Below, one piece after another: positions 37,018-56,099 of a stretch of DNA of 64,000 nt. Both the position numbers and the translations under genes were made by a program. How positions within the stretch are numbered: the first letter of the stretch is position 1; the number at the start of each line of letters is the position of its first letter. The notes beneath the pieces were generated by a model. It made no database searches, was not told the origin of the DNA, and saw only the letters and a list, made by a program, of their open reading frames with translations. Origin of the DNA: Schmidtea nova (lineage: Eukaryota); contig CM097883.1 of assembly GCA_044892505.1 (NCBI GenBank), forward strand, positions 37,014,001 through 37,078,000. Direction: 5' to 3'.

Positions 37018-38082
37018 CCGATCCGAAAATCACAACAGACACACTGTTTTTTAACTTACACAAAACCTACAATTTTTATTATCAAGACTAAACTTTGATT
37101 TTAAGAACACTTTTCTGTGACTTAAGAGTACATTTTGAAATCTTATTCTCGCACCGGAAGATAACTACGAAGTAAAATTTGTTTGATTTTTTATTATGTA
37201 AATTTTGATATGTACCATGATTTCATTTATTAAAGTTTATTTCTGTATTTAATTATTTTATTTTATCATCATTATTTATCATGCATATAGTTATGCTTCC
37301 TAGGCTGCTAACGCGGCGAGGGAGTCCGAGTCGTCGTTGTGGGGCTTCACGGTCTCACATGGCGGTTCAACCTTTTTATTTTTTTTATCAATTTAGTAGT
37401 TTGAACCAGTTGAATTAAATCAGGAGAGGTTGAAAATTTAAATTTAACCCAGACGTTTATTAGCGAGAGTGAAGAGTCTTGATGGTAAATTAATTCCATG
37501 CTTATTTAGTCGAGTAAAATCATAAGTCACGAAATATCAATAATACGATCAAGTCCAGACGGTTTTCTGGCGATAATTAAAAATCATCATTCGGTTGTAC
37601 AGAGGGCGTATCATAGCAGGCAGCAGGGAAGGTCTACTAAGATGCCAGGAGGGGTAAAGTACCCGATAGACGTCAGGTACCCGAGACAAAGATGTCGACA
37701 CACTAGGGTTAAATTTGAGTACGAGAGAGCAGGTGTAGCATTACAAGTTATGAAATTTTTTCAAGTTAATCGATCGAAATGGTGATTTTCAATGGAGGTC
37801 AAGGTACAGGATATCGCAACTGCGTGACAGAGACTAGTAAATTCCAATCTAATAAAACTGAAAATTTGTAAATTCTAAAAATATTCTTATGCCGATCGCT
37901 GTACATAGCGCGGTAATTCAAATTAATCTTATCCTGATCGTCGTACATGGCACAGGGAAAACAAATATCTTATCCGACCGTGGTATATCGCGGCGAGGAT
38001 TTAATAATGAAATTGTATTAACTAAAAGAATTGAGATTAAATAGAATTTATATTCAAATTTTTTAAATAAAATAAACGACAG

Positions 38083-38559
38083 ATGCCGACATCGTTGAAC
38101 GAAAAGTTAACGCGGATTCGGAACTCAGGAAAGGAGGACAGGGCGAATGGATGGGCAAATCAGCTCAAGGAGTTGCCCCAGCCAATTCTGCGGACCATCA
38201 ACGCCCAGGCATATAAGTGGCGACGCGGATTCAATCTAAAATGCCCGTTTTCCATCTGGGTTGGAGGAAACGATCAGGTACTCTACCGGGGAGGACCGAA
38301 TTGGCCACTTTCGCAAAGGCCTTATCCACCGAAATTTGGGCAGATGATCATAGTGATAAACGACGTGGAAGGACGACCGAATCGGATAATTTATTGGGGA
38401 CACATCCTTCGCCGAGAGTTATGCAAATTAGGACTGCAAGCGTTCTTACCGCGGAAACCGTTTGGCAAGGAATGCCAGGAGGGACAACCTCCGTTTTCGT
38501 GGGCTCGACTTCGACAGATGCCAATCAACCACGAACTACACAGCCTATTTCGGCAATAA
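38083..38559 (+). CDS. Family X ORF A, 158 aa, unknown function
   Basis: Intact; ATG directly after acceptor acag; homologue at 10980-11520 conserves WRR.F...PF, WPL and PFG. Confidence 0.75.
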   Translation: MPTSLNEKLTRIRNSGKEDRANGWANQLKELPQPILRTINAQAYKWRRGFNLKCPFSIWVGGNDQVLYRGGPNWPLSQRPYPPKFGQMIIVINDVEGRPNRIIYWGHILRRELCKLGLQAFLPRKPFGKECQEGQPPFSWARLRQMPINHELHSLFRQ

Positions 38560-38732
38560 ATTCTGTGAAAATGATATTTCATAAATAAAATCCTATTATT
38601 AAATCCGTGGTCTTTGTTCTAACTTTTATATTGTTAAGTTTATCATGTTCTTAACGTAATAATAATTGACTTTTACTGAAAATATAAAATGTTTTAACAG
38701 CGGCAAATCATTTAATTTAAATCCATTACAGA

Positions 38733-39329
38733 ATGAATACCGATATTACACAAAGGGAGCTTGAAAAGATGTGGAGAATCCGGAGAGCCCAGGACAAGGA
38801 ATTGGGTCTCCTCAAGGAACAACTATCCAAAGCCTAGGCGCAAGTCACCTATTTGCGCAAAAGCTGGTTCGCTCCGGCTCGAATGAAGGAGCAGATTGGG
38901 AAAACCGAGCGTGCCCAGCGAACAGCAGAAGACTATAAAATGGAATGGGAAGCTACCAAAATCGAGCTTCGGAAGTGCCTCCATTCCGTGACAGCCTCTT
39001 ATATCGAAAGGGAACTGCGAGATCAAATCCGACCGGTCACATATCAAGAATGGACGGCGGAAAAGAAGAGCGTAAACTCGATCGGCACGGACGTCGACGA
39101 TCTCATTGGAATTTGTAACAAGCCAGTTCCATCAATAAATCCAGCCACCCAAACTGCCAATGCTCACCAGAAACGTAAGCGCATAGGGCAGAAGAGGCAA
39201 CGGCAAAGAAAGTTGTTCGCTCAACGATTGCAGAACCAAGTCGACGGCTTGCACAAATTGACAGAGGAGGAACTATTAGAAGAAATATTTCCCCCAGCCG
39301 GAGTGTTTACTGGTTTAATTGAAAAATAA
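38733..39329 (+). pseudogene. Family X ORF B, ~198 codons with one TAG at 38835; coiled-coil plus Arg/Lys-rich tail
   Basis: ATG one base after acceptor ccattacag; LRKSWF..ATKIELRKCL..LRDQIR..KRKRIGQKRQRQRKLF; homologue at 10073-10642. Confidence 0.8.
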
Positions 39330-39568
39330 ATGAATTCTCGTATTATTGTCATTGTTGTTGTTTATCTAAAATAGTTTAGTTAATAGAATAAATAATAAGA
39401 TACCTGTAATATAAAAAATATAAAATTATAATACAAAATACATAAGAAAGGTAAATAAATAATTAAATAAGCACTATGTTAGAAAACATCAGGCAGAATG
39501 AGTGATGTCAAAGATAAATTTTCTGAAAGTTTATTGTGGAGTACATAGCAGATGATTAAAGCGTAAGT

Positions 39569-39637
39569 CCTTCTAACGGCAGCAATGAACCCGTAAACAT
39601 AAATGGGGAGTAGTACTAGCAATAGTGCTCACCTGCC
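39569..39637 (+). ncRNA. Candidate conserved structured RNA motif (three-way junction), copy 2
   Basis: ggcag/ctgcc (with tga/tca), cccgt/atggg and agtact/agtgct stems; aligns to 6303-6371. Confidence 0.5.
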
Positions 39638-42619
39638 CATCATTGTTTAATCACCATGCGCATCACCAACTTGATTATCTAGGGAAATAATCAAGGGCGC
39701 TTGAGTGTATAATTGAAAATTTATGTATGATCATGGATGAGGGATCCCTAGCCATTTGTTAGAACCTTTTTCATCTAACCCCTCCATGAACCCAGCACAT
39801 ATAAGTTGTTGTTTCACTCAAAAATGCGATGACTGTCTTTATTTCCTGCAGTATATAGAATTTTGCAACTTTATTCAGCGTTTAGATCTTACTTTTTGTC
39901 GCACACTCAGCGCCCCATAATAATCAAAAAAATTGTTGAAAACGCACTTATTGAGTGCTATTTATGGTTCATTTATTCTTTAATGTATGTTTTCCATTCA
40001 AAAATAGAAAGTATGGAACAAGAAAAAAATTCCTTAATGGAAATAAGCGAAATATTATTTTCCATAGAAGAAATATTTATACAAAGAAGAGATAAGGAAT
40101 TTATTCCATTAAAAGTAAAAGAAATTATTCACTCTAATAACGATCAATCGAGAAGCCAGTAATAAAAAATGATTTAATTCACGTATATGAAAGAGGATTA
40201 GAATATTTAAAGTTGTGGACTTACTACTTGGATGAATTTAAAGTCTTTAAATGGATGTTGCTAAGAAGTAAGCCAGAGTGGGACGAAATCCAAGATACAG
40301 TACAATATTTATCAAAAAAAGAGTAAATATAAATGAATCATTATTGTTTGATCAATCTATAAGGTTAAATCATTTTTTATACCAAAAAATACCTTGTGAG
40401 GAATTTTCAAAAAACACAGTGCGGATAAATGGACAGGTTATTTTAAAAGTTGGAATTTTATAATTATTGCTTAAATAATAAAGAGCTTTTATTAGAAATT
40501 AGAAATAAAGCTAAATATCAGTTTGAATAAGTATTTATATATTATGTATTGTTATTTTGCATACAATTTGAAATTGTATTTTAATTTTGTTTTTCAAAAA
40601 TTTTGAATTTAATGTTTTGTTTAATTTTTTATTTTAATTAAAATAAATAACTATATTTTTTTGTAATTTTGTTCTTTTATTTTTTAATTAAAAAGTGAAG
40701 CGACTTATTTTCGAGTAGTTTTTGAATTTTCATACCCTCTATTTTGTTGTATTCATTTTTAAATGTTATCAGTATGGTAACCCTAATTGCACCTAAAAAT
40801 CAATACTATGGTGTGAAGTACTTTGTTTCATCGAAAATCTGAACAATTCTACTTGTAAACATAATTTGCATTTTTGCATTTTTTTACACTCATAAATAAT
40901 GAAATGAAACATACATCACAAGTTTCAACAATACTACCTGAATATCATGTTTGTACTCTGTTAAACATTTTTGACAAAAATTCTATTTTTAAAAAGCACA
41001 TTTATTTAGAATTGTAATATAAAATTAAATACTTACAAATATCAAGTAATATTTAGTCCAACTTATAAAATCTTTTGCCTTGTATTAGTCCAACTTTCAA
41101 TGAAGATACGAAAGAGTCGTGGTCATAAATATTATTTGTCTTTTCACAAAGAATATTTTTTGCAAAAACAATTTATCAAAAAAGTTAATTTTTTCTATTT
41201 TATAGGGAGAGTGGGGCTCGAAAATTTATGGAGAGTTAGAACCCTCACAAGTTTTGAGCGAAAGCGATAACTCAGTGTTTCCCAACCTGGGCGATTTGAA
41301 ATTTTAGGTGGGCGATGTTTTTACCATGTTGTTTTTGCATATGTCAACCTTTTTGCAAATCTCAGAGATACGAAAACTTTGTTATAATTCATTTTAAAAA
41401 TGTTCATCTTTCAAAATCTCTATATTTTTGCAAACAATTTTTCAAAAATTTCAAGCCCTCAAACTATAGTGCGATAAAACAAAACACAAAATTGCACTTT
41501 TTGGTACCATTTGTCACGCAAAATCGTGATTAGGACTTTTAGAGTGCAACGGGAACATTGTGCTTAAAAGTGCCCTCACTACATTGAAAAATAAAAAGTG
41601 CACCTTAGCACAGTGAAAATTTTCACACTGCACCTAAACATAAATATTCAAATTTACAAAGTTTTCACGCGTTTTTTGAAAAGTGGTATATATTATTAAT
41701 AGAGGGTAGAGGCGCTATAACTGGTAGTGAGTTAGAAAGCTTACATCTACCTACTTTTAATGTATTTTATTTATTGAAAAAATAGTTTTATAAAATATCG
41801 AATTTAAGATCATCCATTATAAACCATATTCATTCATTATTCCTTCGAGGTTATTCATAGTCATATTTATTAATTGTAATTCATTATCAATCATTATTAT
41901 ATACCAATACAAAATTTTGATAGTTCCTCAAACAATTCTTGTAAATCTAACACCGAAGAGGAACTGCTGTGCAATTATAAAACTCATGAGTTGCATAAGT
42001 GCATTTGAAAACATAACTAAGAGACGTTTATGTTAGGGATTGCAATACCGGTAGTACAGTTTGAGTCATTTTTTACATGTTTATATTAAAAATTGAAATA
42101 ATTGTCAAGCTGTTATTTACAATCAAAATTTTCTACAATTAATTTTCTATTAATTTATCTGCATATAATTGCTTGCTTCTGTTTCTTTCTCTATTTTCGT
42201 AAGTTTTGATTTAAATTTTTATAATTGTGGTTATTGATTTTTTTCATATTGAATTAACCTTCAACGAATAAAATAAAACCATTATCAATTCGTCTCCTTG
42301 GAAATAATTTGAACAAGTCATTGCAGCAACTGTATATAAGGGTTGCATATTCATTAAAAAAGTTCATATAGAATCAACTTGCTGAAAAGAAATTCAACTG
42401 ATATTCATCTGATATTGATATAACAAAAGAGACCAGCTACAATCACGTCATACTTTTTAAAAAATGTCGATGATTTCTTATCAGTTGTTATTTCTTGTAT
42501 GATGATTAAAAATTCTTTGCGAATAAGTAAATTACACATTGATGATTTTGACAGTCAATGACTCTAAACAGAAATTGATGGGGGTTCAACAAACTTGAGC
42601 AACTGATGAAAGATTACCG

Positions 42620-52700: not shown

Positions 52701-52742
52701 TAGAAAAATTTAGTGTATATATATATATATATATAAATATAT

Positions 52743-55452
52743 GGTGCTAGGACAAAATGTCCGCGGACAAAATGTCACGGACAAAATGGCACGGGACAAA
52801 ATGGCACGGGACAAAATGGCACGGGACAAAATGGCAGGGGACAAAATGGCACGGGACAAAATGGCACGGACAAAATTTCCGCGGAAAAAATCGCGGGAAA
52901 AAAACACAGACAAATGTCACCATTATTATTCGCCCGGCCGGCTAGTAAAACATAAACCAAGCCAGGTTCCAACCAAAGACATTGACTGGGAGACGTCACT
53001 GCTTCTTATTTCCGTGTCAACTTAAAATTACTCAACTCTGCAATCTGGTGACAGATTTCTTGAACGCATTGGCATAAAATTTCTATAAACTAAGTAATTT
53101 CTAATTGAATAAAAAAGGTAGACACACTTAGAAAGTTATTTTCAGCTCGGAAGTTTTATTTCTATTTTTTATTAGTTCAAGTAATTCTGGTTGCATTATC
53201 AAAACATCTCATATTCTGTATAAAACTGCTACTTAGCTTCGAAATAATTTTATATGAAACGCCACAATGCAGATGAAGCAGCATATACATTTCTAAACGG
53301 GATAAAATGTATTATATCGCGGATTTGAATTCAAAAATGTATAGTCAAAATATCCCCATTATTCACATTTTAATTACCTATCTCGTCGCGGTGCGGTTAT
53401 TGTTATATACAAAGCAAGTTTTGGTTTCATCACGTGAGTACGTATTGGCCTCAGATTACAACACAGCTATGCAAATTAAAATTTACTTTACATATGATTA
53501 TTTGTGTCGCCTTAATAAATTAATGTTATGACTATAATAAGAGCATGCGCTCGATTTAAAATGAGGAGGCTGGCCTTATAAATATCTTTACACTATATAT
53601 AAACGCTTACAGAAACTATAATTTATAATATTACATGGACAACATATACATAATTTACATTATTTATTATCTTTAAATAAAAATTTATTTTTATATTTAA
53701 CTGTGTTTAAATAAATTAAATAAAGCTACCACAATGTTAGAATTCGTTACATCACAGAAAGGAAATAGTAAGCTTATCGTTCAAGGTTACTTTTTTACTA
53801 AGCATTCGGCGAACAATGATGGAAAAAGCTTTTGGCGCTGTGAAAAAAGAACGTGCACAGTGCGAGTGCACACAAAAGATGATGAAATTGTCCATGCTGT
53901 TGCAACTCACAACCACACGGTAACTCATGGTCAAGTAGAGGTCGAAAGAGCACGAGCCGGCATGAAAAGAGGTGAAACAACTGAAGAAAAAACACGATCA
54001 ATTGTTCAGAATGAATTGATGAATGTTCCAGTTTCAGCAGCGCATCTTCTTCCAAAACGAACAACATTGGCACGAGATGTACGACGACATCGTCAGAAGA
54101 TGGGACCAAACGATCACGATGATATAATGAGATATTCTTTGACGCAGAGCAACAGGCCTTTCATACGTATTAGGAGAGACGACATGATCATTTTCGCAGC
54201 TGAGGATGATTTGGAATTCCTTTCCAGATGTCAGCACTGGTTTGCTGATGGAACATTTCAAGTGAGTCCAAATGGATATGACCAACTTTACACGATTCAT
54301 GGTTTTATTAATGGCGGAGTTTTCCCGGTAGTATATGCACTACTATCTTCAAGAACAGAAGAAGCATATCAACATCTGCTTCAGGAAGTTCTTATATTGA
54401 AAGCAGGTCTGAATCCAGATTCAATTATGGTTGATTTCGAACTAGCAACAATTAGATCATTCCAGAAACCATTCCCGGCAACAACAATCACCGGATGCAT
54501 GTTTCACTTCGGTCAATGTCTTTGGAGGAAATTGCAAGCGGAAGGATTATCGGAACGTTACAGAAATGAACCAGATTTTGCACTTCTCATCAAACGACTT
54601 CTTGCTCTGGCATTCGTTCCACCACAGGATGTTATCGATTTGTTTGAACATTTACTCGAAGATCCAGCTTACCGTGACATAGAGGTTATCTGTGATTACA
54701 TGGAAGATAACTTCATTGGTAGATTAAGAAGAGCAAGAAGAGGGCCACCAAGATTCTCAATTCAACTTTGGAGTCAATTTTCTAGGGTAATCGATAAGCT
54801 GCCTCGCAGTAACAACGCAATCGAGGGTTGGCACAATGCATTCAACAACGTTGTCGGTTTCGCGCATCCGTCCACGACCAAACTTGCACGGAAACTACAA
54901 CAAGAACAACACAGCACTCAACTTCTTCGCCGTCAATTGGAACTGGGAACAACGGCTGGGAGGAAAAAGAAAACATACATCCGCGTCAACGAGGCATTGC
55001 ATGCCATGGTGACCGACTACAACAACCGAGATCCAATCACACATTTAGGAGACATTGCACGTGTTTTAAACATTAATGTTGTTTGACTTCATTAGTTATT
55101 TTCATTGATAAAGGACTCGATTATTTATTTTTAAAAGCGTTTTTAAAATAACCTAATAATGTTATAAGACTAAGCTATTTTATTAACTGAATATCTAACA
55201 CTAAATTAATATAGGCTAGATATAATTATTATAATAAAGTTAGATTAAATTTGATAAATGCATTATTGAAATATTTTCATTGTTTTTCTGTCTTATATTT
55301 TTTTCCGCAATTTTTTGTCTGTGAGTCCGTGACATTTTGTCCGTGACATTTTGTCCGTGCCATTTTGTCCCGTGCCATTTTGTCCTCATGACATTTTGTC
55401 CGTGACATTTTGTCCGCGGACATTTTGTCCGCGGACATTTTGTCCGGCCACC
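52743..55452 (+). mobile_element. Complete MULE/Mutator transposon with minisatellite TIRs
   Basis: TIRs ggtg..ggacaaaatgtccgcgg built of 13-14-bp ggacaaaatg(g/t)cac units; perfect 8-bp TSD aaatatat (52735-52742 / 55453-55460). Confidence 0.97.
53734..55086 (+). CDS. Intact MULE transposase (FLYWCH plus MULE DDE), 450 aa
   Basis: FWRCE..C..HNH; WFADGTF, IMVDFE, GCMFHFGQCLWRK, RSNNAIEGWH; no stops. Confidence 0.95.
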   Translation: MLEFVTSQKGNSKLIVQGYFFTKHSANNDGKSFWRCEKRTCTVRVHTKDDEIVHAVATHNHTVTHGQVEVERARAGMKRGETTEEKTRSIVQNELMNVPVSAAHLLPKRTTLARDVRRHRQKMGPNDHDDIMRYSLTQSNRPFIRIRRDDMIIFAAEDDLEFLSRCQHWFADGTFQVSPNGYDQLYTIHGFINGGVFPVVYALLSSRTEEAYQHLLQEVLILKAGLNPDSIMVDFELATIRSFQKPFPATTITGCMFHFGQCLWRKLQAEGLSERYRNEPDFALLIKRLLALAFVPPQDVIDLFEHLLEDPAYRDIEVICDYMEDNFIGRLRRARRGPPRFSIQLWSQFSRVIDKLPRSNNAIEGWHNAFNNVVGFAHPSTTKLARKLQQEQHSTQLLRRQLELGTTAGRKKKTYIRVNEALHAMVTDYNNRDPITHLGDIARVLNINVV

Positions 55453-56099
55453 AAATATATACCAGTCTTTACACTGCCTGGCTGTAAGATGCGAGGACGA
55501 ATATGTTACCGGCTTACAGTTTCCTAGTGAGTTACTCATTCGCCTGAAGTTTTGTCAAATCAAACTCGGTGCTCCCCAATTATTATTTTGTGAAACTCCG
55601 ATGTTTGAGTGAAGTGGTATAATGGGTACAAAAATACGGATGTCCATGTGTGATTTTGCAGAAAATCCTTATGTTATTTTATGTTTGCGCAAACTAAATT
55701 AGTCAAACCTAATCGTCATGCTACTGCAATGCGAGACTACATGCAGTTAATTTAACTTCTTGTGAACTGGGTTGCCTGTCGAAGTGCATTTATATAACAA
55801 TAAAATCTGTCGGTGTATTTATTCGTGTTCAATTTATATACTGTAGAAATTTGGATAAATGTCGATTCGCATTTTAATTGGTCAAACGGTATTTGAAGCC
55901 CTATGTATTCTCGATTATTATCATTAAAACGTTAAGCAGTCTATGGGCAGTTAATCGTTATTATTCCACAAATTTAGACTGAATGCCCATGTTTCTTTTA
56001 TTATGAATTTGTTTATCCTTATACTACTTGATGATGTCCTGTTTCGCGTATGGTAAATAAAATTAATTGAAATATCCACGCCTGGATTTACCTTTAGGT

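Follow-up and report, generated by a model that had tools for sequence, protein, structure and literature searches.

We analysed a 64,000-nucleotide stretch of the Schmidtea nova genome (assembly GCA_044892505.1, contig CM097883.1, positions 37,014,001 to 37,078,000, forward strand; hereafter the window), in which two small open reading frames (ORFs), ORF A (38083-38559, + strand) and ORF B (38733-39329, +), lie within a solo long terminal repeat (LTR) of a Burro-type giant gypsy (Metaviridae) element. Both ORFs are almost certainly real accessory genes of the LTR. The leading mechanism, to which we give about one chance in three, is that ORF B acts as a Rev/Tat-like regulator of the element's own structured RNA. 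An earlier note on this DNA, made from the letters alone, could assign neither frame to gag, env or any transposase domain, and this held: neither has a Pfam match, and tblastn matches them only to the two LTRs of each full element.

The solo LTR (36633-39797, +; 3165 bp, with TG..CA ends TGTTGGG..CCCAGCA), referred to here as family 1, is flanked by the target-site duplication CATA (36629-36632 and 39798-39801). A DNA search of the genome returned 1241 first-look candidates, 40 of which were scored, and a protein search with a natural open ORF B returned 9860, 150 of which were scored; neither figure is a copy number. Among 20 loci examined, nine were solo copies with both ends visible, two of them in microsatellites and thus uninformative; a 4-bp duplication was present in all seven of the others. 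Paired LTRs of the same kind bound 30-kb elements. Three such pairs, 99.1, 99.5 and 99.3% identical, each enclose a gag-env-pol region: the 99.1% pair lies 56 kb apart with a TTTA duplication common to both LTRs, and the 99.5% pair bounds a cleaner full element of 29.9 kb with a TACC duplication. The interior of the latter encodes, in order, Gag with CCHC knuckles, a Monjiviricetes-type fusion protein, protease, reverse transcriptase (RT), RNase H, integrase, ankyrin and a separate TRAF/MATH ORF, and is split into several ORFs by stops and frame changes. The env match (PF24664) precedes the protease and shares one open frame with it. Accessory domains matched in the elements were Ank_2, MATH_2, zf-TRAF and C3HC4 RING, and the primer-binding site (PBS) is complementary to the 3' end of a tRNA-Pro encoded in the same genome.

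The carrier is a Burro-type element, its domain order and architecture being those described for planarian Burro in the consulted part of PMC6431247. Features in common with Burro/GYPSM1 are the size of about 30 kb, the N-terminal Gag with CCHC knuckles, a mononegavirus-like env between gag and protease, RT, RNase H, integrase, ankyrin, TRAF/MATH and an IAP-type RING ORF. The elements differ from Burro, as that part of the paper describes it, in carrying ORFs A and B in their LTRs and in having TRAF/MATH in an ORF of its own, downstream of the polyprotein region. No Pfam match was found in our elements for the BIR domain itself (the C3HC4 RING was matched) or for BCL2-like, SUMO-like and dUTPase-like segments, the published ones resting partly on HHpred. 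One locus (L026:6908-7366, -) has a 153-aa IAP-type RING-finger ORF directly downstream of the PBS. Genes for tRNA-Pro(TGG) form a 308-bp tandem array (L159, G000:C1:459.61 Mb), for which a 22-letter pattern gave 1106 genomic matches, and these genes are likely the source of the primer tRNA. One full element (L021-L027, G000:C3:148.75-148.81 Mb) is swollen to 59 kb by two related insertions, which by their ORFs we take to be Polinton-like. A Burro-like deletion derivative (L167-L169, G000:C1:163.57-163.60 Mb) retains gag, protease, ankyrin, TRAF and the same PBS, with no env or RT match. No internal element region was found at one further candidate contig (C6).

Selection was measured on 67 loci (some at the same place) using open frames only, 53 for ORF A (43 distinct) and 50 for ORF B (41 distinct), a filter that favours intact copies but not synonymous change. 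In pairwise Nei-Gojobori comparisons, the ratio of nonsynonymous to synonymous divergence (dN/dS) in the most diverged bin was 0.16 for ORF A (717 of 903 pairs; 53 saturated pairs dropped) and 0.08 for ORF B (670 of 820 pairs; 57 dropped). Shifted sense frames gave 1.2-1.9, and the mirror antisense frame gave 0.26 (A) and 0.21 (B), low as expected because third positions are common to both frames. The corresponding polymorphism ratio (pN/pS) of variants shared among copies was 0.16 (A) and 0.10 (B), compared to 0.46 and 0.52 for private variants (Fisher p = 3e-6 and 4e-13, indicative values since the copies are related). In a second LTR family, dN/dS was 0.25 for ORF A (from the 55 of 210 pairs that were unsaturated, excluding one frameshifted row) and 0.17 for ORF B (17 of 66 pairs), with shifted frames at 0.9-1.65. 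The dN/dS values and the contrast between shared and private variants show that purifying selection operated during element replication.

ORFs A and B are present in three LTR families. The window contains a decayed copy of family 2 (9808-13165, -; ends approximate), the 3' end of which was probably cut off by a hAT insertion; a hAT-like transposase (DUF4371) runs across three frames at 7168-9542 (+), and its end appears to truncate this LTR at about 9808. The A-like frame of the copy (about 10952-11600, -) has stops and a frameshift, and its B-like frame (10073-10642, -) has two stops; compared to the window's family-1 copy, B is 31% identical and A is barely detectable. The third family was found at another locus (L162-L166, G000:C1:235.74-235.78 Mb), where A is open (232 aa counted from its first ATG), B is open as well (193 aa) and a second gypsy pol is nested on the opposite strand. 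The order, length and start context of A and B are retained across these families at about 30% identity. Between the family-3 full element and family 1, env is 98% identical, RT 95%, RNase H 91%, integrase 84% and gag 59%, whereas ORF B is 31% identical (51/167) and ORF A is not alignable pairwise and is detected only by profile (E 1e-36). Because env and RT are near-identical while the two ORFs are so diverged, the LTR and its two genes change, or are exchanged, separately from pol-env. Two guessed family-2 LTR pairs turned out to be unrelated solo copies.

ORF A is intact in the window, open over the 158 aa first reported, with an AG directly 5' of its ATG. The motifs originally listed for it (WRR.F...PF, R.G...WPL and PFG) had been drawn from comparing the two window copies. 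In the wider alignment W46, G70 and W74 are kept across LTR families, whereas PFG proved a coincidence of two copies: the family-1 PFG is not aligned with the family-2 NLP.G, and NLPFG occurs in 0 of 22 family-2 rows. The protein has conserved tryptophans and no obvious catalytic set, and is modelled as a compact alpha/beta domain (predicted local distance difference test score, pLDDT, 68; predicted template modelling score, pTM, 0.63). Fold searches gave a best Z of 3.2 (root-mean-square deviation, rmsd, 4.4; 80 aligned), and Foldseek, a check the earlier note had proposed, returned zero matches at E 0.001. A PDB sequence search returned designed proteins only, and Atlas contained no usable match. 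Three proteins recovered by an ORF A profile search were all tandem-repeat sequences and were rejected as artefacts. Among proteins of near lengths there were no homologues of ORF A or of ORF B, and profile comparison shows the two to be unrelated to each other. ORF A may be a new small fold, although absent fold matches are no proof of one for either ORF. An overlapping 115-aa ORF (38241-38588) was rejected as a gene, its frame having a dN/dS of about 1.5.

ORF B spans 198 codons, as had been estimated. The window copy is interrupted by a premature in-frame stop (38835-38837), but the frame is stop-free in 122 of the 150 best-scoring genomic matches, a proportion biased by the use of top matches only. 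The heptad-like pattern suspected in its N-terminal half was not significant on sequence alone (period 3.5; shuffling p = 0.11 and 0.36); structure prediction, however, did yield a coiled coil, at about residues 13-89 of a natural copy (L004). The model has helices at residues 3-43, 49-95 and 142-174 and a low-confidence linker at 113-145 (pTM 0.26). Residues 1-112 are modelled as an in-register parallel homodimer with a score of 0.58, compared to 0.01 for the best control, contacts agreeing to at least 91% between runs and pLDDT being at least 81. Solved homodimers attained this mark in 21/30 microbial and 17/29 eukaryotic cases (animals 7/16), single chains in 0/23 and 0/30. On these models ORF B is quite probably a dimeric coiled coil.

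The conserved basic tail described for ORF B is real in composition, with 8-11 lysines or arginines per 16 residues in 19/19 aligned proteins. It is not the extreme tail: the segment, a predicted Arg-rich helix (39171-39218, +), occupies residues 147-162, with about 36 residues C-terminal to it. The second basic motif quoted for it, KKRNRLGAKRWRERRAF, comes from the diverged minus-strand copy at 10073-10642 with its two stops. The L..L.E..LL pattern reported after the basic segment is well kept, L173 and L181 being invariant and E178 present in at least 90%. A short motif also follows the coiled coil: SIGTD in the window (39078-39092, +), I[G/S/D]T[D/E] in 39/39 family-1 segments, TQT in 18/26 stop-free family-2 segments (8/34 with stops set aside) and STQTE in family 3. 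No homologues were found among longer proteins by an alignment search, a weak test, and none by a PDB sequence search. Atlas gave scores below 0.9 only, weak HALZ and TSC22 zipper clusters among them; a metagenome scan gave no confirmed locus; and the best fold match (Z 7.0, rmsd 5.4, 103 aligned) was to generic helices only.

The layout of the LTR suggests how the two genes may be expressed. A TATA box (37010-37016, +), the putative promoter, lies 377 nt into the LTR; its offset is 376-383 in 17 of the 19 listed copies with a visible 5' end, the remaining two having 355 and 336. The LTR 5' end of family 2 is the same, and its TATA box lies at similar spacing. Because both ORFs are downstream of the TATA box, they would fall in R or U5, and a solo LTR would contain the promoter, both genes and candidate polyadenylation (poly(A)) sites. 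A GTAA island, seen by eye about 120-200 nt past the TATA box in the listed leaders, provides a candidate 5' splice donor that would close a short leader exon (37172-37175, +). AG stands directly before the ORF A ATG in 42/43 copies (38081-38082 in the window) and one base before the ORF B ATG in 41/41 (38730-38731 in the window), with varying flanking letters, and occurs at the same offsets before 112 and 105 of 1478 other nearby ATGs. Several family-2 ORF B frames begin TAG-ATG; in family 3, no AG was found before the first ATG of ORF B. The conserved AG just before both ATGs suggests that ORFs A and B are probably expressed from spliced mRNAs. After ORF B, AATAAA/ATTAAA words (39387-39467, +) are present in 41/41 copies, weak evidence for polyadenylation in AT-rich DNA. 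Past these words lies a donor-like site, GCGTAAGT, followed by a long bulged hairpin (39559-39650, +); the word is present in 29/41 family-1 copies and absent from family-2 rows. HIV-1 and foamy viruses are known to suppress a 5' poly(A) site through a donor, according to the consulted part of PMC12789967.

An RNA motif adjoining the two genes had been proposed, and structured RNA elements with compensatory changes were indeed found beside them. The long bulged 3' hairpin, about 270 nt past the ORF B stop, is common to all three LTR families (z = -2.6), with a compensatory change in 9/13 predicted pairs among 25 sequences. A double hairpin in the leader (37295-37368, +; z = -3.9) is 91-96% identical across family-1 subfamilies while synonymous sites are near saturation, and was not found in family 2 by blastn. 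Upstream of the ORF A acceptor are three short bulged hairpin repeats (37892-37993, +; 3 bp, 2-nt bulge, 4 bp, 6-nt loop), the first of which alone meets the strict descriptor in the window copy. At least one is present in 42/43 family-1 copies and at least two in 36, compared to 0 in shuffles, a generous contrast given that the descriptor was derived from the same sequences. Several pairs in the repeats show compensatory changes. Folding of the whole repeat region gave a z of just -0.6, and none of the repeats was in place in 27 family-2 loci. An Rfam search returned one chance-level match only.

These features led us to favour a regulatory role for ORF B. The LTR promoter would drive a short leader exon spliced to ORF A or to ORF B, and with a poly(A) site after ORF B, solo LTRs could supply both proteins in trans. 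The ORF B dimer would be stabilised by LC8 bound to the TQT-like motif, and the basic helix would serve in nuclear targeting and RNA binding. Bound to the element's hairpins, the dimer would favour full-length RNA, forming a switch between short spliced and genomic RNA. ORF A, whose function is the least constrained, would likely be a protein-interaction partner within the same regulatory module. In a broader form, which we put forward tentatively as possible but somewhat doubtful, Burro-type elements would be 'complex' metaviruses. Their LTR would be a self-contained, swappable module that combines a promoter with two accessory genes expressed by splicing and with their cognate RNA hairpins. 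Solo LTRs, by the thousands, would then act as mini-genes that provide, in trans, both a Rev/Tat-like RNA regulator and a protein whose fold is unrecognised. An invertebrate gypsy lineage would in that case have invented the gene control of complex retroviruses independently.

Several observations weigh against a Rev/Tat-like ORF B. The basic helix is in all families, while the TAR-like repeats and the double hairpin of the leader were found in family 1 only. In the repeats, G-U is not clearly favoured over A-C (8 vs 5), so that they could be DNA sites. Homology of ORF B to Rev, Tat, Rex, Rem or other regulators was not found in Pfam, PDB or BFVD searches, and no textbook leucine-rich export signal was seen by eye. 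Long amphipathic helices are also an easy case for dimer prediction. Family 1 has IGT rather than the TQT called canonical in the consulted part of PMC5746249, in which a glycine replacing the glutamine is not among the variants given. Finally, A and B are undetectable in the LTR, of about 4.3 kb, of the Burro-like deletion derivative; elements may thus not need the pair in cis, or may not all have it.

Helical basic dimers occur among viral silencing suppressors, and ORF B, alone or with ORF A, might instead counter host silencing, as the earlier note had also suggested. Here a basic helical dimer would bind small or double-stranded RNA or chromatin and blunt PIWI/piRNA repression, in trans from many solo LTRs. 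Burro elements are nuclear PIWI targets in planarians (PMC8532177, in the part consulted), and between families A and B have diverged at a much higher rate than pol and env, as is often the case in conflict genes. Inside families, however, purifying selection is strong, the basic helix bears no sign of rapid change, and neither protein has homology to a known suppressor. We consider a suppressor somewhat unlikely.

An unlikely explanation is that A and B are particle or trafficking proteins, with ORF B joining Gag, RNA or the integration complex to LC8/dynein and, through a nuclear localization signal, to importins, and ORF A as a matrix-like or assembly factor. The basic segment looks like such a signal, gag diverges along with the LTR (59% between families), and the element carries env. 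A TQT beside a coiled coil is the usual pattern of LC8 clients in the consulted parts of PMC5746249 and PMC3078936. ORF B resembles the LC8/DYNLL clients of the former in having TQT in a low-confidence linker beside a predicted dimeric coiled coil, and differs in the family-1 IGT at the equivalent place. A promoter-proximal, apparently spliced unit would better suit early regulators, though, and neither A nor B has structural-protein homology.

ORF B could also be a DNA-binding transactivator of its own LTR (Tas/Tax/bZIP-like), the hairpin repeats serving as quasi-palindromic DNA sites for the dimer. Its predicted parallel dimer and basic helix, the near-palindromes repeated downstream of the promoter, and the joint change of LTR and ORF B between families are consistent with this. 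Unlike in bZIP proteins, the main basic helix (147-162) is C-terminal to the coiled coil, past a low-confidence linker of about 30 residues, and not directly N-terminal to a zipper; moreover, the repeats retain a one-sided 2-nt bulge and co-vary as pairs, making a transactivator distinctly unlikely. Highly improbable is that the frames are non-functional, whether ORFs that arose by chance or captured sequence that has decayed as a passive passenger of the LTR. Homologues were not found outside this genome, the window copy of ORF B is broken and language-model recognition values are low (1636, 1582), but the selection results largely refute this reading: in both families measured, only the coding frame and its mirror antisense frame have a dN/dS far below 1. 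The gene order, lengths and start context, which persist between families sharing about 30% identity, also speak against it.

LTR-overlapping ORFs are known from mouse mammary tumour virus (sag) and human immunodeficiency virus (nef). There they occupy U3 and so precede the promoter, the copy in the 3' LTR being the one that is read. ORFs A and B likewise have their coding sequence within the LTR and differ in lying downstream of the TATA box. With Rev/Rex/Rem and Tat and their RRE/TAR targets, as treated in the consulted part of PMC12789967, ORF B has in common a small, apparently spliced accessory gene, an Arg-rich helix, predicted oligomerisation and structured RNA in the LTR transcript; the genes here differ in being wholly inside the LTR, in the far longer ORF B coiled coil and in the lack of detected homology, and RNA binding is a prediction. 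The additional ORFs of plant gypsy elements (Grande, RIRE2, Retand and Athila; PMC7264820, in the part consulted) are also conserved accessory ORFs of unknown origin and function, but their place is the internal region, in most cases after pol and before the 3' LTR. Burro elements and accessory ORFs were already known; the new part, within the literature searched, is the coding genes inside Burro LTRs, of which no description was found there.

Solo LTRs are usually treated as non-coding scars, whereas here each may encode two selected proteins, and there are 9860 first-look candidate places for ORF B in this genome; this would change the annotation of the largest planarian repeats. ORFs A and B are concrete candidates for how Burro controls its own RNA or resists PIWI silencing, and ORF B and the LTR hairpins form a directly testable protein-hairpin pair.

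Elsewhere in the window, an open 450-aa frame (53734-55086, +) encodes a FLYWCH and MULE transposase between long inverted repeats (about 52734-55461) of 14-15 nt units. A 563-aa ORF (4280-5971, -) has no significant Pfam match, and complex tandem repeats with 10-nt and 21-nt units occupy 26390-28280.
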